The notes under the pieces: generated by a model
Told to the model about the DNA's origin: nothing
Seen by the model: only the letters and a program-made list of their open reading frames with translations
Database searches by the model: none
Program-made: the position numbers and the translations under genes
Part shown: positions 16,920-46,519 of the stretch, one piece after another
How the letters are laid out: every line of letters starts with the position of its first letter
Position numbering within the stretch: the stretch's first letter is position 1
Assembly: GCA_011523565.1 (NCBI GenBank)
Contig: WTGL01000027.1
Location: 2,932 to 52,063, forward strand
DNA length: 49,132 nucleotides
From: Acidobacteriota bacterium
GTDB taxonomy: Bacteria; Acidobacteriota; Thermoanaerobaculia; Multivoradales; Multivoraceae
Direction of reading: 5' to 3'

Positions 16920-17438
16920 CTACTTCGAACGAACTCGTCTCGCCGCCAGTGTACGCCGCCTGACGGCCCATTCTCGCAGTCGACCGGCCAGCCACAGGTA
17001 TGCCAGGCCCGCCGCGCTCGTCAGGAGAGCCCGTGAGAGGACGACGAGTACGTCCGGGTCGACGTCGGCAATGTCGAGAACGGTGAGCAGGCCGATCACC
17101 AGGACCTGATGAACCATTACGCCCACCGCGATCAGGAGTCCTGCCACCATGCGCTGGTTCGTCAGGATCCGCTGCGACGCTCGCGCGACCGCGTAGCCGA
17201 CGACACAGCAGGCCAGGCTGTGCAGACCGAAGAGCGAGGCCGTGAGGGTGTCCTGGACCAGGCCGGCCGCGAGACCGCCGGTCAGACCGTGAAGCGAGTT
17301 CCCCCTGAGGCTGGTGAGGATGACCAGCAGGACGAACAGCTCGACGACGTTCGCCGCCGCGGGCAGCACTTCACCAAGCAGGACCTCGACGAGAGCGACC
17401 GCCGCCAGAGCACCGGCGAACCTACCGGCCGACGCCAT
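16920..17438 (-). CDS. mreD: Rod shape-determining protein MreD
   Basis: Hydrophobic protein (GLAAGLVQDTL...FGLHSL) lying between mreC and mrdA. Confidence 0.85.
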   Translation of the reverse strand: MASAGRFAGALAAVALVEVLLGEVLPAAANVVELFVLLVILTSLRGNSLHGLTGGLAAGLVQDTLTASLFGLHSLACCVVGYAVARASQRILTNQRMVAGLLIAVGVMVHQVLVIGLLTVLDIADVDPDVLVVLSRALLTSAAGLAYLWLAGRLREWAVRRRTLAARRVRSK

Positions 17439-18261
17439 CGCCACCGTCCATGTACACCTCGGGCACCGGGTCGCGCCGCCAGATGTACGCATGGCTGAGC
17501 GAACCCAGATCGACGCTCGGGACCACCCTGATGGCGTGGAACAGGTCGCCGCCGGACTCGACCGAAGTGATCGTGCCGATCGGGATGCCGCGCGGAAAGA
17601 AACCGTCGATGCCGGCAGTGATCACCCGGTCTCCGCGTTGCACGTCGACCTGCAGCGGCAGGAACATGAGAGAAAGCGCGGCGGGATCGACGCCGCGGAC
17701 GATGCCCTGGCGACGCGTACGCTCGACCATGGCCCCAACCGAGGAATCGCGGTCGGTGACCAGCAACACCCGGGCATAGCCGGCGCCGGACGAAACGACG
17801 CGCCCCAGCAGACCCTCAGCCGTCGTCACGGGTCTGCGTGACCAGTCCTCCCGCCTGGCGCCCGCCGGCAGGCGCAGGATCGCGGTACGCCGATTGAGGG
17901 AGTGGTGATCGACGTAGACGACATCCGCCAGCAGCAGATCCGCATCCTCGGGCGGCTCGTAGCGCAGTTGTTTCGAGACCAGGTCGCTCTCCAGGCGGGC
18001 GCCCACGCTGGCCGCGTATGCCGCCTCGATCTCGCGCAGGCGCCCGCGCAGCTCCACGTTCTCGCGCTCGAGTTCGGCCCGGGCAGCCCGGCCCCGGCGA
18101 ACGCGGTCGACAGTCTCGCCAACGGCGGCGACGAACTGCTTGACCGGGCCCTCGACCCATAGCGCCAGATCCCCGGCTCTCTGCGGCTCCTGGACCGTGA
18201 GCAACGCCAGCAGAGCGACCACGACGCCACCGAACAGGATCGCGACCCGGCGCTCGCTCAT
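17422..18261 (-). CDS. mreC: Rod shape-determining protein MreC
   Basis: N-terminal TM helix, coiled coil (ELERENVELR), GLLGRV, GDRVITAGIDGFFPRGIPIG. Confidence 0.92.
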   Translation of the reverse strand: MSERRVAILFGGVVVALLALLTVQEPQRAGDLALWVEGPVKQFVAAVGETVDRVRRGRAARAELERENVELRGRLREIEAAYAASVGARLESDLVSKQLRYEPPEDADLLLADVVYVDHHSLNRRTAILRLPAGARREDWSRRPVTTAEGLLGRVVSSGAGYARVLLVTDRDSSVGAMVERTRRQGIVRGVDPAALSLMFLPLQVDVQRGDRVITAGIDGFFPRGIPIGTITSVESGGDLFHAIRVVPSVDLGSLSHAYIWRRDPVPEVYMDGGDGVGR

Positions 18262-18285
18262 CCAAGGAGACCCTAGCTCTCGTCC

Positions 18286-19302
18286 CTAGCGAACGGAGAC
18301 CCTTCGCAGCAGATCGATGTCCCGCAGTGCCCGGCCCGCGCCGAGAACGACGGACGCAAGCGGATCCTCGGCGGCGAAGACCGGCAGTCCCGTCTCCTCG
18401 CGCAGGCGCTGGTCCAGTGCAAGAAGCAGCGCACCGCCACCGGACAGCACGACGCCCTTGTCCATCACGTCCGCCGAGAGTTCCGGCGGCATCCGTTCGA
18501 GGGCCTGGAGCACCGAGTTGACGATCGCGGACACCGGCTCGGCCAGCGCTTCACGGATCTCGTCGTCGGAGATCTTCAGACTGCGCGGCACGCCCTTCAC
18601 GAGGTCCCGCCCCTTGATGTCCATGTGCATCGCCTTCTGGAGAGGAAACGCGGAACCGAGTTCTATCTTGATTTCCTCCGCCGTCCGCTCGCCGACCAGC
18701 AGATTGTGCTTGCGCTTGAGATGCTGGGCGATCGCGTCGTCCATCGCGTTTCCCGCCACCCGCAACGACCTGCTGTACACCGTACCGGCAAGCGAGATGA
18801 CGGCGACATCGGTCGTGCCGCCCCCAATGTCCACGATCATGTTGCCGGTCGGTTCGGTGATCGGCAGACCGGCGCCGATCGCGGCCATCATGGCCTGCTC
18901 GACCAGGAAGACCTCCGAGGCGCCGGCGCTCATGGCCGACTCCAGCACCGCGCGCTTCTCCACGGGAGTGATCTCGGACGGCACGCCGATCACGATCCGC
19001 GGGCGAGCAAAGCGCCGGCCGTGGTGTGCCTTCCGAATGAAGTACTTGAGCATCTGCTCGGTCATCTCGAAGTCGGCGATCACGCCGTCCTTCATCGGCC
19101 GCACCAGCACGAGGATCCCCGGCGTGCGGCCCAGCATCTGCTTGGCCTCGGCGCCGACCGCCTCGATCCGGTTGCTCTGGTTGTTCACGACCACGACCGA
19201 CGGCTCGCGCACGACGATGCCGTTCGCCTGGGTGAACACCAGGGTGTTCGCGGTCCCCAGGTCGATTGCCAGATCGCTGGAGAACCAATGCAGGAATCGC
19301 AT
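18286..19302 (-). CDS. mreB: Rod shape-determining protein MreB
   Basis: DLAIDLGTANTL, RPMKDGVIADF, IVDIGGGTTDVAVISL, GERTAEEIKI. Confidence 0.98.
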   Translation of the reverse strand: MRFLHWFSSDLAIDLGTANTLVFTQANGIVVREPSVVVVNNQSNRIEAVGAEAKQMLGRTPGILVLVRPMKDGVIADFEMTEQMLKYFIRKAHHGRRFARPRIVIGVPSEITPVEKRAVLESAMSAGASEVFLVEQAMMAAIGAGLPITEPTGNMIVDIGGGTTDVAVISLAGTVYSRSLRVAGNAMDDAIAQHLKRKHNLLVGERTAEEIKIELGSAFPLQKAMHMDIKGRDLVKGVPRSLKISDDEIREALAEPVSAIVNSVLQALERMPPELSADVMDKGVVLSGGGALLLALDQRLREETGLPVFAAEDPLASVVLGAGRALRDIDLLRRVSVR

Positions 19303-19364
19303 CGCGGCGAACCTTATCCTGTTACCATCGCGGCCGCCTGCGCTCGCGGCAGGGAGCCACCGCC

Positions 19365-21317
19365 ATGCTGAACGTCATCCGAAAGAACATCAAGAGCTTC
19401 TACCCGCTGGCGATCGGACTCGCCGGAGTGTTCGTGTTGCTGGTCTTCACCGACTTTCAGGCACTCGACGGCACACAGATCAACCAGGTCGCCGCCAAGG
19501 TCGGCCGGGAGGACATCACCTTCACTGAGTTCGAGCGCGCCTACCGCAACACCGAAAGCCGCTACCAGCAGATCTACGGCGACGCGTTCACGGCGGACCT
19601 CGCCGATCAACTGCAGTTGCCCGTGCAGGCGATCGAAGCTCTGATCAATGACCGCCTCCTCACCCGGGAGGCCGAGCGGCTGGGACTGACGGTCAGCGAC
19701 GACGAGCTGCAGGAGGAGATCCTCTCGATACCCGGCCTGAGGGACGCCGCCGGCAACTTCATCGGCGCCCGCCAGTACCAGGATGCCCTGCGCAGGGCCC
19801 GCTACACGGTGGACGAGTTCGAGGCCGAGCTGCGCACGTCCCTCCTGGTGGGCAAGTTGCAGGCGGCGCTGACCGAGGTCGCCCACGTCTCCGACGCCGA
19901 GGTCGAGCAGCGGGCCCGCGACGCCGCCGAGCGGGCGGCCATCCGCTACATCCAGGTTCCCGCCAGTCGCTACGGCGCGGAGGCGGAGCCTTCGGCCGAC
20001 GAGGCGGCCGCCTTCTTCGACGAGAACCGGGACGACTTCCGGCTGCCGGAGCGCAGACGGGTCGGCTACCTGCTGGTCGACACGAACACGGTCCGCGCCG
20101 AACTCGAAGTGACCGACGAAGAGGTTCGGCGGTACTACGAGGACAACGCAGCGCAGTTCGAAGTACCCGAACAGGTGAGGGCCAGCCACATCCTCCTGCT
20201 CGAGACCGCGAGTCGCAGCGGCGAACAGGCCCGCGCGGAGCTGAACGACCTGCGCAGGCGCATCGAGGCAGGCGCGGACTTCGCCGCGCTGGCCGCCGAG
20301 TACTCCGACGACGAGGCGAACAGGGAGAACGGCGGCGACCTCGGTTACTTCGGCCGCGGCGCGATGACACCCGCCTTCGAGGAAGCGGCCTTCGGCGCCG
20401 GCAGCGGCGAGCTGGTCGGTCCGATCGAGAATCAGCTCGGACCCCGCAACGGGCACCACCTGATCCTCGTTCACGATCGTCGTGAAGGTGGGCGGCAGAC
20501 ACTGGAGGAGGTGAGCAACCTGATCCGCGTCCAGCTCCTGGCCAGCAAGGCGGAGGAGGAGGGCCGCAGCCGCATCGACGCGCTCGCCGGGAGGCTCGCG
20601 GACCAGCCGTTCGAGGGCGAAACCGAAGCTCGTGAACTGGCCGCCGCCGAGGGCCTCAGTTTCGAGGTCACCGAGCCGTTCGCCGAGGATGACGCCGTTC
20701 CGGGCGTCGGCCGCAATTTCAACTTCTCCTCCGAGGCGTTCGGCCTGGAAAGCGGCGCGTGGTCGTCGCCGGTCCGGATCGCGGCCGGCTGGGCGCTCCT
20801 CTCGCTGTTGGAGGCCCTGCCGCCGCGCGACGCCGAGCTCGCGGAGGTAGAGACCGACGTACGCGACGTTCTGCGCCGTCAGAAGGAGGAGGAGCTGCTG
20901 ACCGCCGCGCTCACGGAGGCGAAGCAGCGGCTGGACGGGGGGCTGAGCCTGGACGACGCGGCGAACGAGTTCGACGCGACGGTGGAGGAGAGCGGCAGCT
21001 TCGGCCTGCGGCAGCCGGTCGGAGCCCTGGGCGCCGCGCCGGACCTCTCCCGGGAGGTCTTCACTCTCTCCGCCGGCCAGTTCGGCGGGCCGGTCGACAC
21101 GCCGTTCGGCGGCGTGCTGTTCGAGGTCACCGAACGGCAGTCCTTCGACCCGCTTCTGTTCGACCCGGAGACGACGCGGAACGAACTCCTGGCCGAACGC
21201 ACCCTGAGCATGCTGCAATCCGTGCTCGGGCGCCTGCGCGAAGAGCTCGGCGTCAGCTACACGAAGGACTTCATCGAGAACTTCGGTCTCGGAGAGACCG
21301 AGGCGGCAGGCACCTGA
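19365..21317 (+). CDS. ppiD: SurA N-terminal domain / parvulin peptidyl-prolyl isomerase (PpiD-like)
   Basis: N-terminal TM helix, SurA_N-like region, VRASHILL...DFAALAAEYSDD...GGDLGYF...FEEAAF. ATG 19365 has a GGGAG RBS. Confidence 0.85.
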   Translation: MLNVIRKNIKSFYPLAIGLAGVFVLLVFTDFQALDGTQINQVAAKVGREDITFTEFERAYRNTESRYQQIYGDAFTADLADQLQLPVQAIEALINDRLLTREAERLGLTVSDDELQEEILSIPGLRDAAGNFIGARQYQDALRRARYTVDEFEAELRTSLLVGKLQAALTEVAHVSDAEVEQRARDAAERAAIRYIQVPASRYGAEAEPSADEAAAFFDENRDDFRLPERRRVGYLLVDTNTVRAELEVTDEEVRRYYEDNAAQFEVPEQVRASHILLLETASRSGEQARAELNDLRRRIEAGADFAALAAEYSDDEANRENGGDLGYFGRGAMTPAFEEAAFGAGSGELVGPIENQLGPRNGHHLILVHDRREGGRQTLEEVSNLIRVQLLASKAEEEGRSRIDALAGRLADQPFEGETEARELAAAEGLSFEVTEPFAEDDAVPGVGRNFNFSSEAFGLESGAWSSPVRIAAGWALLSLLEALPPRDAELAEVETDVRDVLRRQKEEELLTAALTEAKQRLDGGLSLDDAANEFDATVEESGSFGLRQPVGALGAAPDLSREVFTLSAGQFGGPVDTPFGGVLFEVTERQSFDPLLFDPETTRNELLAERTLSMLQSVLGRLREELGVSYTKDFIENFGLGETEAAGT

Positions 21318-21342
21318 CCGCCGCACGGCGCGCGACTCCCGC

Positions 21343-21960
21343 TTGATCGGCTACCTGCGCGGGCGTCGTCAGGCCCTGGGGCCCGAACTCCTGGTTCTCG
21401 ACGTGGGCGGCGTCGGGTACTCCGTGCGCATCCCGCTCTCGACCTGGTTCGAGCTGGACAAGCTGGAGGCCGGCGCCGAGTTCGGTCTTCACATCCACAC
21501 CCACGTGCGCGCCGACGCGATCGAACTGTTCGGCTTCTGGACCGAGGCGGAGCGCACCCTGTTCGAACACTGCCTCGGCGTCAGCGGTGTCGGACCCCGA
21601 CTGGCCCAGGTCGTTCTCTCCGGCGGTTCGACCGCCGACCTCCTGACGGCCATCGCCGGCGGCAACGTCGCCGCCCTGACCCGGATCCCGGGGATCGGCC
21701 GCAAGACGGCCGAGCGAATGGTTTTGGAGTTGAAGGAAAAGGCGAAGATGCTGCTGGCCGAGTCCGGCGTCGAACCGCCGCCGGCCGAGGCGGAGCCGGA
21801 GCTGGAAGACGACCAGGAGCAGGTCATCAGCGCCCTGCTCAACCTCGGCTACCGCCCGAACGAGGCCCGGCGCGCGGTGTCCCGCGTCCTCGCCGAGCAC
21901 CCCGACGTCGAGTTCCAGGAGCTCCTCCGCCAGAGCCTGCGCCAGCTCTCCCGGCTCTGA
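21343..21960 (+). CDS. ruvA: Holliday junction branch migration protein RuvA
   Basis: MIGYLRG, DVGGVGY, LFGF, VSGVGPRLA, IPGIGRKTAERMVLELK, ALLNLGY. Confidence 0.96.
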   Translation: MIGYLRGRRQALGPELLVLDVGGVGYSVRIPLSTWFELDKLEAGAEFGLHIHTHVRADAIELFGFWTEAERTLFEHCLGVSGVGPRLAQVVLSGGSTADLLTAIAGGNVAALTRIPGIGRKTAERMVLELKEKAKMLLAESGVEPPPAEAEPELEDDQEQVISALLNLGYRPNEARRAVSRVLAEHPDVEFQELLRQSLRQLSRL

Positions 21961-21990
21961 ACGCCTCGGACACGCCGCACACACCGGACG

Positions 21991-22200
21991 CACCCGCCCG
22001 TCTTGGGTCCGGAGGGGTCAGCTCCCAGGGTGACGTTCGCGCTTGAGAGGAGATGTGAGGGGATGGCACTCACTCCGCTTCACTCGCTCCGGTTGGGCGT
22101 CGGTGATTGCAACGTCGTTGGCCGTCGCTCGTTCAGAGGCACCTGGGAGCTGACCCCTCCGGACCCGACCGGGCTAGACGTCGTTGCCCTGAGCTGAGGC
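21991..22200 (+). repeat. Hairpin repeat element, copy 1 (short inner end)
   Basis: Starts CACCCGCCCGTCTTGGG. Contains a perfect 25-bp internal inverted repeat GGGTCCGGAGGGGTCAGCTCCCAGG (22005-22029 / 22142-22166). Highly similar to 44001-44210. Confidence 0.95.
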
Positions 22201-22213
22201 CCTGTGCGCCGCG

Positions 22214-23083
22214 TCAGAACAGGGTGCCCCGGACTGGCAGGTCCAGGTGTTCGTACGCTCGCTTGGTGGCCACGCGGCCGCGGCGGGTGCGCTGGAGGAA
22301 TCCCTTCTGGACGAGGTACGGCTCGTAGAAGTCCTCGATGGTGCCCTCGTCTTCGCCGACCGACGCCGCGAGCGCCTTGAGGCCGGCCGGGCCGCCCCCG
22401 TACTGCTCGATCAGCAGTTTCATGATCCTGCGATCGATCTTGTCCAGGCCCTGCTCATCGACTTCCTGCTGAAGGAGAGCCTCGTTTGCGGTGTCGCGGT
22501 CGATCCGTCCGTCGGCTTCGATCTGCGCGTAGTCACGCACCCGGCGCAGCAGCCGGTTCGCAATCCTGGGCGTACCGCGGCTGCGCCGGGCGATCTCGTC
22601 GGCGCCACCCAGATCGACGGGCACTTCGAGCAGCTCGGCCGAGCGCTGGATGATCACGCTGAGCTGGAAGTCCTCGAGCGCCGGGTAGAGGATCTCCTCC
22701 ACCGTCGGACCGAGACGGTGGATCTCGTCGATGAAGAGAACATCCCCGGGTTCGAGGTTGGTCAGGATCGCAGCCAGGTCGCCCGCCCGCTCCAGGACCG
22801 GACCGGACGTGGACCGCAACGCCGAACCCATCTCCCGGGCGATGATGTGCGCCAAGGTCGTCTTCCCCAGCCCGGGGGGACCGAACAGCAGCACATGGTC
22901 CAGAGCTTCGCCCCGCCGGCGCGCCGCCTGCATGTAGATGTCGAGCAGCTCGACGATCTTCTCCTGCCCCAGGTACTCGCTCAGCCGCTGCGGCCGAAGC
23001 GACGGTTCGAGACGACGGTCCTCTGCGTCCCCGACGGCTGAGAGAACGCTCTCCTCACCGTCGGTGCCGCCCGTCCCGGCCAT
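22214..23083 (-). pseudogene. ruvB: Holliday junction helicase RuvB with an in-frame internal deletion (~54 aa); probably non-functional, or an assembly error
   Basis: [49 protein letters not shown] and EPYL are present. EDFQL is joined directly to SVIIQRSA, with no GATTR or RDRFG segment. Length is 289 aa. Confidence 0.85.
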
Positions 23084-23108
23084 GGCCGGATGCTATCGCG
23101 GCCCCTAG

Positions 23109-23348
23109 CATGACACCGCCGCGGGCGTTGCAGGTCGGTGCCTTGCCTCAGGGCAACGACGTCCAGCCCGGTCGGGTCCGGAGGGGTCAGCTCCCAGGTG
23201 CCTCTGAACGAGCGACGGCCGACGCCCCCCACGCAACGGACGACCAACCGGAGCGAGTGAAGCGGAGTGAGCGCCATCTCCTCACATCTCCTCTGACGCG
23301 CTCACGTCACCTGGGAGCTGACCCCTCCGGCCCCAAGACGGGCGGGTG
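23109..23348 (-). repeat. Hairpin repeat element, copy 2 (full length, inverted)
   Basis: Reverse complement of copy 3 over ~240 bp, including the inner extension ...GGCGGTGTCATG. Arms at 23174-23200 / 23308-23334 with one mismatch. Confidence 0.95.
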
Positions 23349-23439
23349 AGCGCAGCGCCGTGGCGCCGGCTGGCGTTGGCGTGTACGCTAATGCGCCTTT
23401 CGCGCCCTACCGACGACGTGACTCCACCTCCAACGCACC

Positions 23440-25983
23440 ATGAAGGTCCTCAAGTTCGGCGGCTCCTCCGTGGCCGACGCAGCCCGGCTGCAGTCGGCTG
23501 CCCGGATCGTGTGCGGGCAACTGGAGAACTCGGCTGCGGACGGGGCGGTGGTGGTGTCCGCCCTCGGAGGGGTCACCGACCGGCTGCTGGGGCTTGCCTC
23601 GGCCTGCCTCGAGGAGCGCGATCCGGCTGAGGCGGCTCGCGAGGTGGAGGCGCTTCGCGTCCATCACCTGGACATCGCGGCCGAGGTGGCGGCCGACGAC
23701 GAGCAGCCGACGGTCGCGGCCACGGTCGAGGCCCTGTGCGACGACCTTGCATCGACACTGAGCGAGTGCGCGCCGGACGGCGCTGGCGACGGCCGTTCGA
23801 ACGAGGCCCTGATCGACCGGATCGTCTGCCATGGGGAACTCCTGTCCACCCAGCTCCTGGCCGCCGCGCTGCGCGCCGAGGGCCTTCCAGCCGAGGCCTG
23901 CGACGCACGCCCCCTGGTCTCCACGGACCGTTCGTTCCAGGGGGCGACCGTCGATCTGGAACCGACTCTCCGGGCGATCGCCTCGCACTTCGCCGACCTC
24001 GGCGCCGGCGCCCCGCTGCAGGTGATCACCGGCTTCCTCGGCAGCAGTCCGGAGGGCGAGACGACGACCCTGGGGCGCAGCGGCTCCGACCTCACCGCCG
24101 CCCTCGTCGGCGCCGCGCTGGATGCCGAGCGGATCGAGATCTGGACCGACGTTCCGGGCGTGATGACGGCCGACCCGCGGCGCGTGGAGGACGCCCTGCC
24201 GATCCCGCGGCTGAGCTACGAGGAGATGCTCGAACTCTCCCACTTCGGCGCCAAGGTCGTCTATCCGCCGACCGTGACGCCGGCGCGTCGCCGTGGCATT
24301 CCGTTGCTGGTCCGAAGTACCCTCGATCCCGAGCATCCCGGCACCCTGATCGACGACGACGAACTCGTCCGGGAAAGGGCCCGCGGCACCGCGGTCACCG
24401 GCATCTCCTCGATCGACGACGTCCACCTGATGCTGCTGGTCGGCGACAACCTGGTCGGCACTCCGGGCGTTGCGGCCCGCCTCTTCGAGGCCCTCGCTGC
24501 GAGCGGAGCGAGCGCGATCCTGATCTCCCAGGCTTCGAGCGAGCACTCGATCTGCTTCGCGGTCGAACCCGGCGTTTCCGAGGCGGCGAGGAAGGCGGTG
24601 GACGCCGAGTTCCGGGCGGAGATCGCGGCCGGTTCGGTGCGACCCCTGAGGGTTGAGCGGGACCAGTCGATCGTTGCCGTGGTCGGCGACGGCATGCGGT
24701 ACCGGCCGGGTATCGCCGGACGCGTGTTCGGCATCCTGGGCCGGCGCGGGGTGAACGTGCGGGCAGTGGCCCAGGGCTCGTCCGAACGGAACATCTCCAT
24801 GGTCGTGGCCCGGGCCGACGAGGGGCGAGCGGTGCGCTGGATCCACCGGGAGTTCTTCCACGGCGCCGCCTCGGGGCGGCTCGCGGTCTATGTCCTCGGT
24901 GTCGGCGGCGTCGGCTCGGCGCTCCTGCGGCAGCTCGATGCCGAGCGCGAGTCCCTCGCCCGGCAGGGGATCGACCTGCAGTTGCGGGGCCTGGCCAGCT
25001 CTCGCTACATGCGCTTCGGAACCCGCCGCGGCAAGAGCCTGGACGCCGGCGCCGCGAGCGATCCCGACGGTTGGCGGTCCGAACTCGAGCGGAACGGCGA
25101 AGGAGCGGACCTGGACCGCCTGCTCGACCACCTCGCCGAAACGGCGGCCGGCGGCGGCCGCACGGTGCTCGTCGACGTGACCGCCAGCGGCTCCATGGCC
25201 GCCGTCTACCACGGCGCGCTGTCCGCCGGCGCCGCGGTCGCCAGCGCGAACAAGCTGCCCTTCGCGGGACCGCTCCAGGACTTTCGCGCCTTCCGGCCGA
25301 ACGGAGCGCAGAACGTCTTCCACGAGGCGACCGTCGGTGCGGGCTTGCCCGTGCTCCACACCGCCGACATGCTGCTCGGCGCGGGCGACCGCATCGACAC
25401 GGTATCCGGCGTGTTCTCGGGCACCCTCGCCTATCTGACCGGCAAGCTGGGCGCCGGCGCCGTCTGGAGCGAAGCGGTCCGCGAGGCCCACCGCCTGGGC
25501 TACACGGAACCGGATCCGCGAGACGATCTCGGCGGCCTGGACGTCGCTCGCAAGCTGCTCATCCTGGCGCGGATCTGCGGCTGCGAACTCGATCTGGACG
25601 ACATCGAGGTCGAGCCCATGCTCGACCGGCCCGACCTGGCCGATCTGCCGCTCGACGGCTGGTGGGAACGGCTGGCCGAAGCCGACGGCGACATGGCGGA
25701 CCGCTTCGCCGACGCCGCGTCGGCGGGGCTGGAACTTGCCTACCTGGCCGAACTCGACATGTCCGGCGAGACGGCCGCCGCCCACGTCGGACTGCGAGCC
25801 GTACCAGCCGACCACCCGGTCGCGGGCATGCCGGCTTCGGACAACATGTTCGTGTTCCGCAGCCAGCGCTACCGGGAACGCCCCCTGGTCGTCCAGGGCC
25901 CGGGCGCCGGCACCGACCTGACCGCCGGCGGTGTCTTCGCTGACATACTTCGGGCTTGGAACGAGAGGGGCTCCGCCCCGTGA
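23440..25983 (+). CDS. thrA: Bifunctional aspartate kinase / homoserine dehydrogenase
   Basis: [26 protein letters not shown] domains ([19 protein letters not shown]), [25 protein letters not shown]. Confidence 0.96.
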
Positions 25984-26026
25984 GCGCTCCCTCCTCCGGC
26001 GGCCCGCGGCAACCAGGGAGCCCGTC

Positions 26027-27112
26027 ATGAGTCCTTTTGGCCTGAACCCGAGTCGACCCCTGCGCGCGGCGGTTCTGGGCGCGACCGGCACGGTGGGCCA
26101 GCGGTTCGTCACGTTGCTCGCCGGACACCCGTGGTTCGAGATCGAGGCGCTGGCGGCTTCCGAGCGCTCGGCCGGGAAGAGCTATCGCGACGCCGCAACC
26201 TGGATCCAGACCCGGCCGATCGACGAGACGGTCGCGGCGATGCCCGTGCACACGATCGGCGAGCTGCTGGACCGCAACTTCGACCTCGTCTTCTCCGCCC
26301 TGGACTCCAGCGTGGCCCGCCAGGTCGAACCCGCCTTCGCCAGGCGCTGCCTGGTGGTGACGAACGCGAGCGCCCACCGCATGGACGAGGACGTCCCGCT
26401 GCTGGTGCCCGAGGTCAACCCGGATCACCTGGACCTGCTGGGGCCGCCGTCGGATGGCACCCTGCTCCCGGGCGGCATCGTCGCCAACCCCAACTGCTCG
26501 ACGATCGGCCTGGTGCTGGCGCTCAAGCCCCTGCACGACGCCTTCGGCATCGACCGCCTCTCGGTGGTCACCCTGCAGGCCGTCTCGGGCGCGGGACTGC
26601 CCGGAATCTCAAGCTACGAGATCATGGACAACGTGATTCCATGGATTGCCAGCGAGGAGGAGAAGCTCGAGATCGAGACCGGGAAGATCCTCGGTCGGGT
26701 CGACGGAGGCGCGATCGATCCGGCCCGGATCGTGGTTTCGGCCCAGTGCAACCGCGTCCCCGTCGTCGACGGCCACACGCTCTGCATCTCGGTGAGCCTG
26801 AAGAGCGAGCCCGAACCGGAGGAGGTGCGGGAGGCCTGGCGCAGCTTCCGCGGCGAGCCGCAGGAACTCGGCCTGCCTTCGGCGCCGGAACTGCCTACGG
26901 TCTACCTCGGCGACGACGAGCCGCCCCAAACCCGGATTCACCGCGACCTGGGGCAGGGCATGACGGTCCCGATCGGCCGGTTGCGCGAGTGCCCCGTGCT
27001 CGATTTCCGGTTCGTCGCCCTGTCGCACAACACGCTCCGGGGCGCCGCCGGCGGCGCGGTGCTGGCCGCGGAACTCGCGGTCGCCCGATGCGCCCGGCAA
27101 ACCGGCGGATGA
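26027..27112 (+). CDS. asd: Aspartate-semialdehyde dehydrogenase
   Basis: LGATGTVGQRF, VPLLVPEVNPDHL, NPNCST, QAVSGAG, HNTLRGAAGGAVL. ATG 26027 has a GGGAG RBS. Confidence 0.95.
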   Translation: MSPFGLNPSRPLRAAVLGATGTVGQRFVTLLAGHPWFEIEALAASERSAGKSYRDAATWIQTRPIDETVAAMPVHTIGELLDRNFDLVFSALDSSVARQVEPAFARRCLVVTNASAHRMDEDVPLLVPEVNPDHLDLLGPPSDGTLLPGGIVANPNCSTIGLVLALKPLHDAFGIDRLSVVTLQAVSGAGLPGISSYEIMDNVIPWIASEEEKLEIETGKILGRVDGGAIDPARIVVSAQCNRVPVVDGHTLCISVSLKSEPEPEEVREAWRSFRGEPQELGLPSAPELPTVYLGDDEPPQTRIHRDLGQGMTVPIGRLRECPVLDFRFVALSHNTLRGAAGGAVLAAELAVARCARQTGG

Positions 27113-28116
27113 GCCGCTCGGTGAGGGCGTTCGCCCCGGCGTCGGTTTCCAACATCGCCTGCGGCTTCGACATCCTGGGCTTCGCCCTGCAGTCGGAGGC
27201 CGGCGAACCTCCGGCCGGACCGGGTGACGTGGTCACTGCGGCCGAACGGATCGGCGACCGCCGTGCCGGACCCTGCGGACCGGTCAGGATCACGGCGATC
27301 TCCGGCGACGCCGGCCGGCTGCCGCGCCAGGTCGAGCGCAACACGGCAGCCGTGGCGGCCGCGGCGCTGCTTGAGGCGGAGGCTCCGGATAAGGCCGTCG
27401 ACCTGGAGATCGAGAAGCGCATGCCGCTCGAAAGCGGCCTCGGCTCGAGTGCCGCCAGCGCGGTGGCGGCAGTCGTCGCGGTCGATGCCCTGCTGGGGCT
27501 CGACCTGCCGCCGGCGACTCTGCTGCGCCACGCGCTGGCGGGAGAGATCCTCGCGAGCGGCGGCGCCCACGCCGACAACCTGGCCCCGGCGCTGTTCGGA
27601 GGTCTGGTCCTGGTCCGCTCGCTCGATCCGGAGCCGGATGTCGTCGAGTTGCCGGTGCCCGAGGGTCTCACCTGCGCCCTCGCGCGGCCCCACACCCACG
27701 TGAACACCCGGGAATCGCGGTCGACACTCGACCGCGATCTGCCGCTTCAGCGCGCGGTGACGCAGTGGGGCAACGCCGCGGCTCTGGTGGCGTCGCTTTA
27801 CCGCAACGACCTGGAACTCCTTTCCCGATCCCTGGTCGACGTGGTCGCCGAGCCCGTACGGGGGCCGAACGTACCCGGCTTCTACGACGCCAAGCAGGCG
27901 GCTACGGAATCCGGAGCTCTCGGCTGCAGCCTGTCGGGCAGCGGTCCCGCCGTGTTCGCCCTCTGCGACGGCACAGGCCGCGCCAGGGAGGTCGCAGCGG
28001 CGATGGCGGCCGCCCTGGAGCACGCTCTGGGAGTCGACTGCGACCGGCTCGTGTCGCCGCTCCCGGCCCCGGGCGCGCGCGTGATCGAAACCGGCGACGA
28101 CGCCGGCGGAGCCTGA
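27109..28116 (+). CDS. thrB: Homoserine kinase
   Basis: APASVSNIACGFDILGFAL, PLESGLGSSAAS, HADNLAP, LSGSGP. ATG 27109 overlaps the asd stop (ATGA). Confidence 0.95.
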   Translation: MSRSVRAFAPASVSNIACGFDILGFALQSEAGEPPAGPGDVVTAAERIGDRRAGPCGPVRITAISGDAGRLPRQVERNTAAVAAAALLEAEAPDKAVDLEIEKRMPLESGLGSSAASAVAAVVAVDALLGLDLPPATLLRHALAGEILASGGAHADNLAPALFGGLVLVRSLDPEPDVVELPVPEGLTCALARPHTHVNTRESRSTLDRDLPLQRAVTQWGNAAALVASLYRNDLELLSRSLVDVVAEPVRGPNVPGFYDAKQAATESGALGCSLSGSGPAVFALCDGTGRAREVAAAMAAALEHALGVDCDRLVSPLPAPGARVIETGDDAGGA

Positions 28117-41608: not shown

Positions 41609-42709
41609 ATGTTGCAGTTAGTCCCTCCGGAGCGGCTCAGGGACGGGCTCCTGCACTGGTTTGACCGCTGGCGCCGCGACCTGCCGTGGCGTCGATCCGA
41701 GGATCCCTATGAGGTTCTGGTTGCGGAAGTCATGCTCCAGCAGACCCGCAGCGAGGTCGTGGCTTCGCGCTATCCGGGCTTCCTCGAGGGCTTCCCGACG
41801 CTCGATGCGATGGCCGAAGCCACGGTCGAGGAGGTGGAGGCAGCCTGGTCGGGCCTCGGCTACTACCGCCGGGCGCGGAACCTCCATCGTGCGGCCCGCA
41901 TCCTGGCCCGACGTGCCGAGCTTCCCGGGAGCGCCGCGGAATGGAGCCAGTTGCCCGGCGTGGGCCCCTACACGTCGGCGCTGCTCGCCAGCCGTCTGCA
42001 CGGTGAATGCGTGCCGGTGCTCGACGGCAACGTGGAGCGCGTGCTGAGCCGGTTCCTGGCTTCCCCGTTGCCGCCCAGGCGGGCCGAGACCCGGCGGATC
42101 CTGCTAGCGACCGCGGCGAGGCTCCTGGACCCGGAACGTCCCGGCGACTCGAATCAGGCCTTGATGGAGGTGGGATCGCTCGTCTGCCGGCACAGGCGCC
42201 CGGACTGCGGCGCCTGTCCGCTTTCTCCTGGATGTGCGGCCTTCAGCACCGCCGGACTGGATCCCCGGGACTATCCCGGCAGAGCTCGGGGTCGAGCTCG
42301 GGAGACCGTTCACTGCTTCACGGCCGTGGTCAGGAGGGATGGCGGCCTGCTGCTGCACCGCCGTCCCGGTGACGCGGAGTGGCTGGCCGGCCGCTGGCAC
42401 CTGCCGACGGTCGAACTGGAGAGGGGGGACGAGTCCGCGAGCGAGTCGGCGGCGCTGCTCGGCGAGGCGTTCGGGGGCGACTGGGAATGCGAGGATGGCG
42501 CCGTCGTTCGTCACGCGGTGACCTACCGGGACTTCTTCGTTCGGGTGGCTGTCGCCCGGTGGCGGCCTGACCCGGGGTTCGAGGTACCTTGCCCGCGGTC
42601 GGCCGCGGGTGAACTCGGGTGGTTCGCTCCGGAGGAGATCGACGAGCTGCCGACCTCGTCGCTGCTCCGCAAGTCGCTGGCTTCCATCCCAATACACTCC
42701 GGGCCATGA
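41609..42709 (+). CDS. mutY: A/G-specific adenine glycosylase
   Basis: RDLPWR, EVMLQQT, WSGLGYYRRARNL, LPGVGPYT, DGNVERV, 4Fe-4S motif C-x6-C-x2-C-x5-C, NUDIX-like tail. Confidence 0.95.
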   Translation: MLQLVPPERLRDGLLHWFDRWRRDLPWRRSEDPYEVLVAEVMLQQTRSEVVASRYPGFLEGFPTLDAMAEATVEEVEAAWSGLGYYRRARNLHRAARILARRAELPGSAAEWSQLPGVGPYTSALLASRLHGECVPVLDGNVERVLSRFLASPLPPRRAETRRILLATAARLLDPERPGDSNQALMEVGSLVCRHRRPDCGACPLSPGCAAFSTAGLDPRDYPGRARGRARETVHCFTAVVRRDGGLLLHRRPGDAEWLAGRWHLPTVELERGDESASESAALLGEAFGGDWECEDGAVVRHAVTYRDFFVRVAVARWRPDPGFEVPCPRSAAGELGWFAPEEIDELPTSSLLRKSLASIPIHSGP

Positions 42710-43908
42710 CGACGGTCACCGAGCGACGGCAGCCGATTCCCTTCATCGACCTGGCCGCTCAGTCGAGGCGGCTGCGGCCGGAGATCGATCGGCGGATCGC
42801 GGCCGTCCTCGACCATGGCCGCTACGTCATGGGACCCGAGGTCGAGGAGCTGGAGGCTGAGCTCGGCAGGCTCGGCGGGGCGACGGCGGTGGCCGTATCG
42901 AGCGGTTCGGACGCCCTGCTGATCGCGCTGCTTGCACTGGGCGTCGGCCAGACCGAAGGGCGGCGGGACGCGGTGTTCGTTCCGTCCTTCACGTTCACGG
43001 CGACGGCGGAAGTCGTCCTGCTTGCAGGCGCCGTCCCAGTGTTCGTCGACGTCCGGGAGGATGACTTCCTGCTCGACATGGGTTCCCTCGAGCGAGAGTT
43101 CGAGACGCTGGAGCGGGCCGGCGGCGCCGTCCCCCGGGCAGTCATCAGCGTCGACCTGTTCGGCCAGCCGATGCCCCGGCAGCCGCTGGCCGACTGGGCG
43201 GCTTCGAGGGGGCTGGAGGTTGTCTCGGATGCCGCGCAGAGCTTCGGGGCCCGTCGCGGCGGGCGGCCCGTGGGGTCGCTGGCCGCCGTGACGACGACCA
43301 GCTTCTACCCCGCCAAGCCGCTCGGCGCCTATGGCGACGCCGGGGCGATCTTCTGCACGGAACCGGCCGCCGCCGAGGTCGTGCGTTCGATGCGCGAGCA
43401 CGGCCAGAGCGCCGACCGCTACGACATCGTGCGGCTGGGGATGAACGGCAGGCTGGACACCCTGCAGGCCGCCGTTCTGCTGGCGAAACTGACGATCTTC
43501 GAGCAGGAACTGGCCGCCCGCCGCGCGGTCGCCGCCGGCTACACCAGGAGGCTGAGCGCGACGTCCGCGCCGATGGGCACGCCCTGGCGCGTCGCCGTGC
43601 CGGTGTGCGAACCCGACGTGGATTCGAGTTGGGCCCAGTACACGCTGCGGGTCGACGACGCGGACGGAAGGCCGTCCGCGGAGACACGGAACGCCCTGCG
43701 CGCCCACCTGGCACGGGCCGGCATTCCGACCGCGGTCCACTACCCGCTGCCGATGCACCTGCAGCCAGCCTACGAACCGCATGGCCGTGGTCCGGGATCG
43801 CTGCCGGTCAGCGAGAGCCTGGCCGACCGGGCCGTCAGTCTGCCCATGCACCCCTACCTCGACGAGTCGACGCTCGACCGCATCTGCGAGCGCATCGCGA
43901 CCGCTTAG
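42706..43908 (+). CDS. DegT/DnrJ/EryC1/StrS family sugar aminotransferase
   Basis: IPFIDL, SSGSDAL, FTFTATAE, DAAQSFGA, SFYPAKPLGAYGDAG, NGRLDTLQAA. ATG 42706 overlaps the mutY stop. Confidence 0.93.
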   Translation: MTTVTERRQPIPFIDLAAQSRRLRPEIDRRIAAVLDHGRYVMGPEVEELEAELGRLGGATAVAVSSGSDALLIALLALGVGQTEGRRDAVFVPSFTFTATAEVVLLAGAVPVFVDVREDDFLLDMGSLEREFETLERAGGAVPRAVISVDLFGQPMPRQPLADWAASRGLEVVSDAAQSFGARRGGRPVGSLAAVTTTSFYPAKPLGAYGDAGAIFCTEPAAAEVVRSMREHGQSADRYDIVRLGMNGRLDTLQAAVLLAKLTIFEQELAARRAVAAGYTRRLSATSAPMGTPWRVAVPVCEPDVDSSWAQYTLRVDDADGRPSAETRNALRAHLARAGIPTAVHYPLPMHLQPAYEPHGRGPGSLPVSESLADRAVSLPMHPYLDESTLDRICERIATA

Positions 43909-44010
43909 CGTCGAGCTGCACCCGCGGGGGCGTCGGACGCACCCGCGGGGACGTCGGCTGCACCCGCCTGGCGTCGGACGCACCCGCCTGGCGTCGGACG
44001 CACCCGCCCG
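43908..44010 (+). repeat. Five tandem 20-22 bp units, consensus GCGTCGGACGCACCCGC(C/G)NG
   Basis: Units at 43908-43929, 43930-43950, 43951-43970, 43971-43990 and 43991-44010. The last unit overlaps the outer end of repeat copy 3. Confidence 0.93.
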
Positions 44011-44241
44011 TCTTGGGTCCGGAGGGGTCAGCTCCCAGGGTGACGTGAGCGCTTGAGAGGAGATGTGAGGGGATGGCGCTCACTCCGCTTCACTCGCTCC
44101 GGCTTGGCGTCGGTGAGTGCAACGTCGCCGGGCGTCGCTCGTTCAGAGGCACCTGGGAGCTGACCCCTCCGGACCCGACTGGGCTGGACGTCGGTGCCGC
44201 GAGGCGAGGCACCGACCTGCAACGCGCGCGGCGGTGTCATG
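44001..44241 (+). repeat. Hairpin repeat element, copy 3 (full length)
   Basis: Perfect 25-bp arms at 44015-44039 / 44152-44176 with the same 112-nt spacer as copy 1. The inner extension to GGCGGTGTCATG is shared with copy 2. Confidence 0.95.
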
Positions 44242-44295
44242 TTTGGCGGCTTGGCAAGACCAGGTCCGGGGGAGGGCGCTAGCCTCGGATTTGGC

Positions 44296-45606
44296 ATGGC
44301 TGCTTCCCGTTCGCACGGACTCGACAGCGGCGATCGGCTGCCGTATGTCAGAACGTCGGTTCCGGGGCCGCGTGCGCGGAGGGCGGCCAGGCGGCTCGAA
44401 GGAGCTGAGGCGCCGGGGATCAACACCCTGGTCGCCGGAAGCACCGCGATGCTGTGGGAGGCGGCGCTCGGCAGCAACGTGCTGGATATCGACGGGAATC
44501 GCTATCTCGACCTGACGGCTGGATTCGGGGTTGCCGCAGTGGGCCATCGGCATCCCGCTGTGGTCTCGGCGGTCAAGCGGCAGGCGGACCGCCTTCTTCA
44601 CGGGTTGGGTGACGTGTTTGCGCATCCTTACCGTCTGGAATTGAGCGAGCGTCTGGGTCGCCTGGCGCCGCTCCGCGAGCCGCAGGTCTACTTTGCCGCC
44701 TCTGGAGCCGACGCGGTGGAGATCGCGCTCAAGACAGGGCGCCTCTACAGCGGCCGTCCTGGAATCCTCGCGTTCACGCCGGCCTACCACGGCACCACGT
44801 TGGGGGCCCTCCAGGGCACTTCGAGGCCGGCTTTTCGAAGCCCCTTCATCGAGCCACTCGAGCATCTGGTTCACCGTTTGCCCTACGGCGCGGCAGCTGA
44901 AGAGGTGCAGCAACTCCTGGAACAGCAGCCGGAGATCGGAACCTGCCTGGTCGAACCCGTGATCGGCCGCGAGGCCACCCGATGGCCTCCTCCGGGCTGG
45001 TTGGCCGCATTGGCCGCGGCATGCCGTGAGCACAAGGTGGTTCTGGCAGTCGACGAGATCTTCACCGCGTTCGGCCGCTGCGGGGAGTGGTTCGTCAGCG
45101 CGGAGGCGGGTATCGAGCCCGATCTCATCTGCTGCGGCAAGGCCCTGGGCGGCGGTCTTCCGATCGCCGCCGTGATCGGTGAGAAGGACGTCCTGGCCGC
45201 TTGGCAAACGGAGGGCGAGGCTCGCCACACGGCGACATTCGTCGCGCACCCACTCGCCTGCGCGGCGGCTCTCGCGACACTCGATGTGATCGAGAGTGAG
45301 GGGCTGGTGCAGCGGGCCCAGGAGATGGGCAGACGTTTGGGCCACCGCCTGGAACCACTCAAGCAGCACCCCGTCATCGTCGATGTCCGAGGAAAAGCCC
45401 TCTTGTGGGGCGTGGAACTCGATACACCGAAACGCGCGCCCGGTCTCTGTCGGCAACTCCTGGAGCGTGGCGTGATCGCCCTGAGCGGGGGTGCAACCGG
45501 CACCGTGGTGCAGATCGCGCCACCGCTGGTGGTCACCGAGCGCCAACTCGACTACGCGGCAGATTCTCTGGTCGAGGCTGCTCTTGGCATGTGTTCCGAC
45601 TCCTAG
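44296..45606 (+). CDS. Class III PLP-dependent aminotransferase (GABA/ornithine aminotransferase-like)
   Basis: DIDGNRYLDLTAGFGV, SGADAVEIALK, YHGTT, EPVIG, DEIFTAFGRCG, GKALGGGLPI. An alternative in-frame ATG lies at 44239. Confidence 0.9.
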   Translation: MAASRSHGLDSGDRLPYVRTSVPGPRARRAARRLEGAEAPGINTLVAGSTAMLWEAALGSNVLDIDGNRYLDLTAGFGVAAVGHRHPAVVSAVKRQADRLLHGLGDVFAHPYRLELSERLGRLAPLREPQVYFAASGADAVEIALKTGRLYSGRPGILAFTPAYHGTTLGALQGTSRPAFRSPFIEPLEHLVHRLPYGAAAEEVQQLLEQQPEIGTCLVEPVIGREATRWPPPGWLAALAAACREHKVVLAVDEIFTAFGRCGEWFVSAEAGIEPDLICCGKALGGGLPIAAVIGEKDVLAAWQTEGEARHTATFVAHPLACAAALATLDVIESEGLVQRAQEMGRRLGHRLEPLKQHPVIVDVRGKALLWGVELDTPKRAPGLCRQLLERGVIALSGGATGTVVQIAPPLVVTERQLDYAADSLVEAALGMCSDS

Positions 45607-45689: not shown

Positions 45690-45886
45690 GGCAACGACCG
45701 CCAGCCCAGTCGGGGCCGGAGGGGTCAGCTCCCAGGTGCCTCTGAACGAGCGACGCCTGACGACATTGCGGTCACCGACGCCCAACCGAAGCGAGTGAAG
45801 CGGAGTGAGCGCCATCCCCTCCCATCTCCTCTCAAGCGCTCACGTCACCTGGGAGCTGACCCCTCCGGCCCCAAGACGGGCGGGTG
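45690..45886 (-). repeat. Hairpin repeat element, copy 4 (short inner end, inverted)
   Basis: Perfect 27-bp arms at 45712-45738 / 45846-45872. Ends CCCAAGACGGGCGGGTG. Confidence 0.95.
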
Positions 45887-45931
45887 CCGCGCAACTTCCT
45901 GCCCACAGGCCGCGGACGGGCGGGTGACCAG

Positions 45932-46519
45932 TCAGAGAGAACGGCGGCCGGCCAGGGACCGCGCCAGGGTGACCTGGTCGGCGTAGTCGATGTCGCCGCC
46001 GACGGGGAGGCCGAAGGCGAGGCGGGTGACGCGGACGCCGCGGCGGGCGAGGAGGTTGGCCAGGTAGAGGGCCGTGGCTTCGCCTTCGACGTTCGGGTTC
46101 ATCGCCAGGATCGCTTCTTCGATGCCGTCGAGGCGGTCCAGGAGGGAGGCGACCGTGAGTTCGTCGGGTCCGACGCCTCGCTGGGGCGAGAGGGAGCCCA
46201 GGAGTGCGTGGTAGAGGCCGTGGAACTCACCGGTGCGCTCAATCGGTTCGATGTTGAACGGCTCCTCGACGACGCAGAGCTTGGTTCGGTCGCGCTGCGG
46301 GTCGTCGCAGATCGAGCAGGGGTCCACCGCGGTGATCTGGTGACAGGTCGAGCAGTGGATCATGCGGTCCTTGACGTCGATGACCGCCTGGGCGAGCGCT
46401 TCGGCCCGGCTCCGGTCGGCGCGGAGCAGGTGGTGCGCCAGTCGCCGGGCGGTCTTCGGGCCGATGCCCGGCAGGCGCGAGAGCTCCTCGACCAGGCTGG
46501 AGAGCGGATCGGCCGGCAT
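45932..46519 (-). CDS. recR: Recombination mediator RecR
   Basis: LPGIGPKTARRLA, CSTC...CSIC zinc finger, NPNVEGEATA, GLPVGGDIDYAD. Confidence 0.97.
   Translation of the reverse strand: MPADPLSSLVEELSRLPGIGPKTARRLAHHLLRADRSRAEALAQAVIDVKDRMIHCSTCHQITAVDPCSICDDPQRDRTKLCVVEEPFNIEPIERTGEFHGLYHALLGSLSPQRGVGPDELTVASLLDRLDGIEEAILAMNPNVEGEATALYLANLLARRGVRVTRLAFGLPVGGDIDYADQVTLARSLAGRRSL

Follow-up and report, generated by a model that had tools for sequence, protein, structure and literature searches.

In a 49,132-nt stretch of DNA from an Acidobacteriota bacterium of the Multivoraceae (GenBank assembly GCA_011523565.1, contig WTGL01000027.1, positions 2,932 to 52,063 of the forward strand; called the window below), the gene ruvB is enclosed by two copies, inverted to each other, of a dispersed hairpin-forming repeat, here named REP, and converges with its operon partner ruvA. 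Comparison of this locus across the genus revealed that ruvB switched its orientation at least three and most likely six to seven times, with breakpoints that lie within the repeats. We consider it likely that the inverted REP arms recombine homologously and turn ruvB around. A previous interpretation of the letters of the window (the sequence-only reading) had proposed such an inversion, but did not foresee the recurrent flips in the genus, a second flipping cassette or the exchange of ruvB alleles between species.

Orientation of ruvB in the window and across the genus

Pfam placed RuvA on the forward and RuvB on the reverse strand (Table 1), in agreement with the convergence of the two genes described in the sequence-only reading. 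Inverted REP copies were found on either side of ruvB, and the flipped segment is bounded by copies 1 and 2 as proposed there. Copy 1 begins about 25 nt past the ruvA stop codon. The inverted homology within the window consists of the arm pairs 21991-22029/23310-23348 (39 nt, 97% identity), 22029-22104/23236-23311 (76 nt, 89% identity) and 22116-22200/23140-23224 (85 nt, 94% identity), and copies 1 and 2 are identical, in inverted orientation, over at most 56 consecutive nt (Table 1). In G008 and G035 the inverted homology amounts to about 330-350 nt (G000 designates the genome of the window, other G numbers are congeners, and L and R copies are the repeats on the ruvA side and on the thrA side, respectively).

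We took the ruvB locus from all 42 species of the genus, each together with ruvA. In every one of them ruvA adjoins ppiD and the order ppiD-ruvA-ruvB is kept, and thrA comes next in all 39 species whose contig extends far enough. Within this frame ruvB is co-oriented with ruvA in 34 species and flipped in eight, namely G000, G002, G005, G015, G032, G033, G035 and G049. A set of 11 outgroup loci from the same order was also inspected; in four of these ruvA lay outside the 1.5-kb flanks, and all seven loci holding both genes were co-oriented. Because co-orientation is found in 34/42 congeners and in 7/7 outgroup loci, the ancestral order is ruvA-ruvB-thrA on one strand. The synteny in relatives thereby confirmed the order that re-inversion of the segment had been predicted to restore.

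The number of switches was estimated from two trees. On a maximum likelihood tree of the flanking ppiD, ruvA and thrA proteins (IQ-TREE quick search, LG+G4, support from the SH-like approximate likelihood ratio test, SH-aLRT, only) the flipped state takes seven changes, at least six of which are forced by branches with SH-aLRT ≥95. On a tree of ruvB DNA the flipped label takes six changes, at least three of them forced. Both orientations occur even in the four-species clade of the window: G000, G033 and G035 are flipped and G008, the sister of G035, is unflipped.

Full REPs stand on both sides of ruvB in 16 species, four of which are flipped, and no trace of REP was found in 13 species, none of which is flipped (these counts are not phylogenetically independent). 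In the other species, the spacers contain REP remnants with internal deletions, in which the outer motif is fused to the inner end, junctions as expected from slippage loss of a long hairpin. Such remnants are present on both sides of ruvB in G002, on one side in G005, G033 and G049, and also in several unflipped species. In total, ruvB is flanked on each side by a REP, or by what an internal deletion left of one, in all eight flipped species (8/8), and every flipped genome therefore has or had a REP pair. According to the sequence-only reading, convergent ruvA and ruvB in a relative lacking the repeats would speak against it. G002 seemed to be such a repeat-free counter-example and was ruled out by the deleted remnants in the spacers either side of its ruvB. 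Orientation switches are thus confined to lineages with repeats or remnants on both sides.

Breakpoints and exchange of ruvB alleles

A leader of about 20 nt precedes the start of ruvB in all 21 genomes whose spacers were inspected (G000 and 20 others), including the repeat-free species, where it makes up nearly the whole ruvA-ruvB spacer. Where ruvB is unflipped this leader lies toward ruvA, where ruvB is flipped it lies toward thrA, and the few bases following the ruvB stop codon (the tail) switch sides as its mirror image. The outer repeat flanks remain with ruvA and thrA, and a 3-nt indel marks the thrA-side copy in both G008 and G035. Since leader and tail move together with ruvB while the outer markers stay in place, the breakpoints of the flips lie within the repeats, in line with the crossover inside the element that had been suggested from the window.

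The repeat variants listed in the sequence-only reading were all read in the sequence as stated. The outer ends of copies 1 and 3 carry GGGTCC and CCCAGGGTGAC, those of copies 2 and 4 carry GGGGCC and CCCAGGTGAC. With regard to the T/G arm variant, copy 2 combines a T inner arm with a G outer arm, and both arms are of type T in copy 1 and of type G in copy 4. The long inner extension follows the 5′ end of the enclosed gene, as had been noted: 23104-23140 matches 44210-44246, and each is upstream of this 5′ end. From its mismatched arms, copy 2 had been taken as a possible chimera. This view stood up in the comparison with the unflipped G008, whereas the T/G variant failed as a marker because it sorts by neither side nor orientation. 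Among the closest relatives the outer arms are T in both the L and R copies of G008 and G035 and G in G033, and the inner arms are mixed; as the variant is not side-specific, we rejected it as a crossover marker. Copy 2 agrees with the thrA-side copy of G008 in the part between its outer end and the central loop, loop included, and its inner extension agrees with the ruvA-side copy of G008. This supports the view that copy 2 is a putative chimera of sequences corresponding to the L and R copies of G008.

Alignment of the copies had been suggested as a means to locate the crossover, and copy 2 did provide an interval. Because it changes from G008-R-like to G008-L-like at about 23125-23220, we place the crossover of the window there; the interval includes the 56-nt exact tract, which is the likeliest site. 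Copy 1 was uninformative since its central loop resembles copies 3 and 4. Four-way alignments were made for G008/G035, G008/G000, G007/G015 and others, and usable signal came from copy 2 of the window only. Many sites in G007/G015 that seemed to be shared by the same side turned out to be misaligned non-homologous outer flanks. In G008, G035 and G015 the central loops of the L and R copies match each other and not their orthologues. The two arms of one genome are therefore homogenised by gene conversion, which leaves too few sites to map other crossovers.

The ruvB DNA tree conflicts with the flank tree. It contains a clade of 22 species with 100* support that comprises the clade of the window, G010 and 17 species of the other deep clade. 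The ruvB of G000 is 90.5-93.2% identical to the genes of these 17 species, whose ppiD, ruvA and thrA show only 77-82% identity, and it is only 87-88% identical to ruvB of species with 85-90% identical flanks. In approximately unbiased (AU) tests the ruvB data rejected the flank-tree clade (p = 0.0008) and also rejected G002 and G053 as sisters (p = 0.0005; this pair was chosen after tree inspection). When G000 was compared with G015 or G032 in sliding windows, identity rose from about 80% to 85-98% at the edges of ruvB and then fell back. Tree conflict and identity steps together lead to the conclusion that ruvB alleles were replaced across species. The endpoints of these replacements are located at or in the repeats. 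In two cases the allele lineage is shared in spite of opposite orientation: G008 and G035 are sisters on both trees, and in the ruvB tree G040 and G049 are placed close together within a five-member clade with 100* support. These pairs favour an inversion in cis.

The REP family, a second cassette and surrounding features

REP is a dispersed repeat of about 200 nt with 38 BLAST matches and 39 nhmmer hits in the source genome, a short-read metagenome-assembled genome (MAG) of 3.7 Mb in 327 contigs. Five congeners have 15-32 matches each. The RNA fold of copy 1 is a long rod of −118.9 kcal/mol (z = −4.2) and beats 200/200 shuffles; given this stability and the 39 members of the family, the inverted repeats around ruvB are not a matter of chance. 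An alignment of 31 full copies from the source genome resulted in a consensus structure of 43 pairs. The cells of these pairs comprise 1253 Watson-Crick, 21 G-U, 15 A-C and 44 other combinations, and many pairs are represented by three to four pair types. Such compensatory pair types demonstrate that the hairpin itself is conserved. No strand bias was detectable in the main stem of the 31 copies, as G-U (21 cells) is about as frequent as A-C (15 cells). Short motifs are conserved at both ends and in the core. REP is thus a multi-copy, non-coding, intergenic element with a hairpin maintained by compensatory change, and Rfam contains no family for it, either at the gathering score or at E = 10. 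In 27 of 36 scored copies the outer end of the repeat points to the 3′ terminus of a gene, often 15-45 nt past the stop codon (genes were called with a crude GC3-based caller, and 3/39 copies were unscorable). Sponge-type Acidobacteria MAGs, including 'Candidatus Multivorans sp.' and a 'Holophagales bacterium', contain exact matches to a 25-nt arm, and the public runs containing the window sequence are labelled as sponge metagenomes. Directly upstream of copy 3, at 43905-44005, four to five tandem units of about 20 nt repeat the REP outer-flank motif (GCACCCGC... type); duplicated outer motifs of a similar kind are present on the thrA side in G040 and G049.

The second cassette of the window consists of copies 3 and 4 and a class-III aminotransferase gene between them (Table 1). 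Using recR as anchor, we fetched this region from 40 congeners (loci L085-L124), of which 33 were scorable. The aminotransferase gene was flipped in nine of these (G012, G016, G038, G040, G043, G047, G050, G051 and G052), which corresponds to three changes on the tree. It was gone in G035 and G049, where one repeat copy is left. DNA identity of the aminotransferase gene to the closest relatives is 84-86%, compared to 92-94% in the flanks. The neighbouring degT of G014 (L092) is 90% identical to that of G000 versus about 77% in its clade relatives. Furthermore, recR and ruvA are on the same strand in G045 and G048, unlike in other species, and their distance in G048 is 76 kb versus about 22-25 kb elsewhere, which points to larger rearrangements in the region.

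Close REP pairs had the (+,−) polarity, with inner ends toward the cargo, in 6/6 cases in the source genome and, for pairs less than 3 kb apart, in 12/12 cases in five other genomes (several of the pairs are orthologous, and independent loci are fewer). Among the cargo are genes for a TPR protein, an adenylosuccinate-lyase-like protein, a zinc dehydrogenase, a TIM-barrel protein and a PstI-type restriction-modification pair. This polarity may be explained by the position of the repeat after gene 3′ ends together with the instability of direct pairs, without a mobile unit. We also considered REP-gene-REP as a composite transposon. For ruvB this was rejected, as the gene occupies the same site between ppiD-ruvA and thrA in 42/42 species, including the 13 without a repeat; for other cargo such as the restriction-modification pair it may still apply. 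Three REP arrangements of the source genome were noted. A 6.2-kb (+,−) pair (G000:C91:21618-28261, L127) surrounds a PstI/BsuBI-type restriction endonuclease, an Eco57I-type methylase and other open reading frames (ORFs). At G000:C187:9053-9538 (L128) two facing REPs are only 94 nt apart and form an 'empty' pair, a palindrome of about 480 nt. At G000:C61:41525-46162 (L129) one REP is seemingly split into parts matching model positions 3-92 and 83-199, both of which are on one strand and are separated by 4.4 kb with ORFs of CsgG-like and endonuclease/exonuclease/phosphatase-family type.

Table 1. Features of the ruvB locus and of the second cassette (window coordinates)
Feature	Position	Strand	Basis or remark
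PpiD/SurA-like chaperone gene (ppiD)	19266-21317	+	Pfam
ruvA, fixed left flank	21343-21960	+	Pfam RuvA_N 6.8e-18, HHH_5, RuvA_C
REP copy 1, ruvA side	21985-22200	+	repeat search; nhmmer 1.3e-58 (C299:24917-25119)
56-nt tract, exact inverted match to 23165-23220	22120-22175	.	exact-match scan
ruvB, flipped segment	22214-23083	-	Pfam RuvB_N 2e-56, AAA_lid_4, RuvB_C
Unique leader just 5′ of the ruvB start, conserved GCGATAGCATCC-type motif	23084-23103	-	spacers of 21 genomes
REP copy 2, thrA side, inner extension 23104-23140	23104-23359	-	repeat search; nhmmer 6e-54 (C299:26083-26280)
thrA-type bifunctional aspartokinase/homoserine dehydrogenase gene, fixed right flank	23440-25983	+	Pfam AA_kinase, ACT, Homoserine_dh
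DegT-family aminotransferase gene, upstream of copy 3	42619-43908		
REP copy 3, left arm of second cassette	43990-44246	+	repeat search, nhmmer
Class-III aminotransferase gene between copies 3 and 4	44296-45606	+	Pfam Aminotran_3 4.4e-89
REP copy 4, right arm of second cassette	45690-45887	-	repeat search, nhmmer
recR	45932-46519	-	copy 4 about 45 nt downstream of recR

According to Pfam, the ORFs across 17422-28116 encode MreC, MreB, the PpiD-like protein, RuvA, RuvB, ThrA and a GHMP-kinase protein. A scan of 21800-23600 for sigma-70 consensus promoters gave no site. Some repeat-bounded ruvB cassettes in the genus contain 0.9-1.5 kb of additional DNA (G004, L033, 5223-6538; G014, L034, 5105-6654; G046). 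The insert of G004 is located between the left repeat and ruvB and has a lower G+C content, a tRNA-like stretch and a small ORF. In G038 and G012 (L050, L072) ruvB and also thrA or ruvA look frameshifted; as several consecutive genes are affected, sequencing errors are more likely than pseudogenes.

As assembled, ruvB of the window has 289 codons versus 343 (1029 nt) in relatives. The alignment has a clean in-frame gap of 162 nt (54 codons) at 22663-22664 that is filled in all 41 congeners; its junction shows only 3 nt plus scattered microhomology, and RuvB_N was matched to positions 1-128 of 159 only. From the RuvB structure, the missing part presumably holds sensor 1 and the arginine finger, and no second ruvB was found in the source genome. 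Public run X1, which contains 96% of the sampled words of the window, yielded a 1211-nt contig of depth 1013 with 159 extra letters exactly at the gap, and, by the summed depth of the bin at the gap, any other form would account for about 1% at most. Because the missing letters are present at full depth in this contig, the 162-nt deletion is a rare variant or an assembly fault and not evidence of a dead ruvB. Joints of 'opposite strands' at 23109/23152, 22157/23103 and 22038/23303 were considered as flip junctions and discarded, as their source is either further copies of the repeat or a related species whose ruvB leader is shorter. Likewise, two ruvB contigs of G008 (C30, C167) do not represent alternative orientations, since both are unflipped.

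Mechanism, alternatives and known systems

We propose that the ruvB cassette is a gene placed between two inverted copies of the REP hairpin and that homologous recombination between both arms would reverse the enclosed gene. After the crossover the outer repeat ends would stay with ruvA and thrA, and the inner ends would be swapped. The flips are presumably near-neutral: they are probably tolerated because a hairpin of about 200 nt already separates ruvB from ruvA and because ruvB keeps its own leader. The ends of the ruvB allele replacements between species fall at these same arms. Given that the two arms are inverted with respect to each other, a donor fragment could be inserted either way round, and some switches may be replacements in trans instead of inversions in cis. 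On our data, the recombination is best read as acting in cis for the most part, with allele replacement in trans as an occasional route. Of the inversion reading made from the window, the inverted ruvB with breakpoints in the repeats was borne out, while the T/G argument is weak.

A number of observations weigh against this interpretation. When flips were tested on independent pairs for association with full REPs that still stand on both sides today, no signal emerged (median p = 1), since the repeats degenerate once a flip has occurred. In the four-way alignment of G008/G035, five same-side, two swapped and six by-genome sites are opposed by 55 uninformative ones, and the crossover was unmappable in G007/G015. 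RecA-type recombination as the pathway is a step that we infer. Exchange was also seen at degT, a gene that is not enclosed by repeats; the case for the repeats in ruvB exchange therefore comes down to the positions of the endpoints. With regard to the window itself, contigs (k = 31) of four public runs stop in the repeat stems and none bridges a repeat, a short-read assembler could flip the segment at the 56-nt exact tract and produce the same chimeric copy 2, and the 162-nt deletion of the window contig is absent from the X1 contig, so that this stretch of the MAG is not flawless.

An assembly artefact would mean that the true order in the window is ruvA-ruvB-thrA and that the wrong arms were joined in the 56-nt tract that copies 1 and 2 share exactly in inverted form, which is the only place where an assembler could have mis-joined. 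Such a fault would fit a MAG in 327 contigs whose ruvB also has the doubtful deletion, and it would mimic the chimeric copy 2. However, reads of at least 100 nt span 56 nt, the nearest relatives G033 and G035 are also flipped, and G033 lacks the left repeat and is thus not a repeat mis-join. We regard an artefact in the window as very unlikely, and given its two nearest flipped relatives the flip is likely real. It would moreover touch the window alone and leave the flips elsewhere in the genus unaffected. Seven further species carry them, including G049 with a single contig of 4.9 Mb. Because of G049, and because one or both repeats are deleted in the flipped G033, G005 and G002, the flips in the genus are not assembly errors.

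A different explanation dispenses with intramolecular inversion: a REP-ruvB-REP fragment from a co-resident species would replace the resident allele through crossovers in both arms, in either orientation. The conflict between the ruvB and flank trees and the identity step at the ruvB edges are in agreement with this origin in trans, as are the different ruvB alleles of the flank sisters G002 (flipped) and G053 (unflipped), a pair picked post hoc, and the alleles of the flipped G015, G005 and G002, which branch outside the 12-species allele clade of their flank relatives. We nevertheless think it rather unlikely that transfer explains the switches, since G008/G035 and G040/G049 share an allele lineage despite opposite orientation. 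In addition, 60-nt windows of the arms show 66-87% identity between G000 and G015, compared to about 93% for ruvB, with no obvious co-transfer of the arms, and the route in trans would presuppose competence and DNA uptake in these uncultured bacteria. A programmed site-specific inversion, that is a phase-variable switch with a dedicated recombinase and both orientations in each population, would account for the repeated switching of one 1-kb segment (at least three switches forced on the ruvB tree, at least six on the flank tree), for the flipping of a second cassette with the same repeat family, for the (+,−) polarity of all close pairs, 12/12 and 6/6, and for the structured and conserved arm sequences. 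Known invertase sites are far shorter than 200-350 nt. The inverted homology at ruvB is of this length, and the arms are homogenised along it, as recombination over homology would do. Pfam identified no dedicated recombinase among the ORFs of 17422-28116, where ruvB has ppiD, ruvA, thrA and the GHMP-kinase gene as neighbours, and the rest of the genome was not searched for invertases. The polarity is more plainly explained by outer ends facing gene 3′ ends in 27/36 copies and by direct pairs deleting their cargo. Taken together, a programmed switch appears very improbable, and homologous recombination between the REP arms remains our preferred explanation.

A more far-reaching idea takes in ruvB, the aminotransferase gene, the restriction-modification unit and others. 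Pairs of hairpin repeats would be portable recombination arms that make single genes reversible and exchangeable cassettes, which flip within populations and are swapped, either way round, between co-resident symbiont species. We consider this distinctly unlikely. If it were true, the ruvB cassette would act as a heritable switch that turns Holliday-junction processing on and off or sets its dosage, and with it the very recombination behind the flips.

The ruvB flip represents an ordinary recombination mechanism in an unusually repeatable form in sponge-associated bacteria. The 42 species, with at least three and most likely six to seven switches and with the stages of repeat decay, provide a clean natural series. 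It indicates that a small structured intergenic repeat can break the conserved ruvAB operon, can make a housekeeping gene freely invertible and can delimit the alleles exchanged between species. For the annotation of MAGs the case calls for caution: convergent ruvA and ruvB are real biology in this genus, yet in a single short-read MAG both the orientation and an internal 'deletion' need confirmation at the read level. If both orientations coexist in populations, this would be a rare case of a recombination gene under recombinational switching.

Inversions between copies of insertion sequences or rrn operons by homologous recombination are common knowledge for bacterial chromosomes. In the plastid flip-flop, arms of 10-25 kb are kept alike by gene conversion and both isomers occur in one cell. 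The ruvB cassette resembles this system in having a unique segment in both orientations between inverted arms that are homogenised by gene conversion, but its arms are 0.2-0.35 kb long and only 88-94% alike, and the orientations are known from separate genomes. Minimal mobile elements of Neisseria are different genes that replace each other through homology in the flanking genes. Here too a segment between conserved flanks appears to be replaced by homologous recombination after DNA transfer between lineages; unlike in Neisseria, alleles of the same gene are replaced and the endpoints lie at inverted repeat arms, so that the orientation can change. Hin/Gin-type segments and invertible promoters operate through short sites and a recombinase of their own, and their switching takes place within a clone. 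They share with ruvB a segment bounded by inverted repeats in two orientations, and differ from it by the ruvB arms of 200-350 nt and by the lack of a recombinase gene at the locus.

REP is similar to REP/BIME, ERIC, Correia and MITE-type elements in being non-coding, multi-copy, intergenic and hairpin-forming and in often following genes directly (PMC2817692, PMC3184786). It is unlike them in its length of about 200 nt, its stem of about 30 bp with compensatory changes, its conserved branched core and the lack of an Rfam match. In comparison to MITE-type elements, no partner transposase was identified for the repeat of the window, and target-site duplications were not examined. Our literature searches found nothing on this repeat or on flipping of ruvB, and no paper under the name 'Candidatus Multivorans'. 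The closest parallel is provided by the TRIP1 repeats of E. coli, for which 137 of 156 rearrangement events were reported to lie between TRIP1a and TRIP1c (PMC10888264). Both systems have inverted intergenic copies as recombination substrates, and in both the same pair was rearranged recurrently, in E. coli across different strains (PMC10888264). There, the inverted segment measures up to 1.3 Mb (PMC10888264), whereas here it is one 1-kb housekeeping gene that is split from its operon partner. A further difference to TRIP1 is that this gene flipped recurrently among 42 species and that a second single-gene cassette exists. The mechanism as such is well known. New is the instance, a housekeeping gene flipped repeatedly within one genus, with an undescribed structured repeat, a parallel second cassette and allele exchange that is bounded by the repeats.

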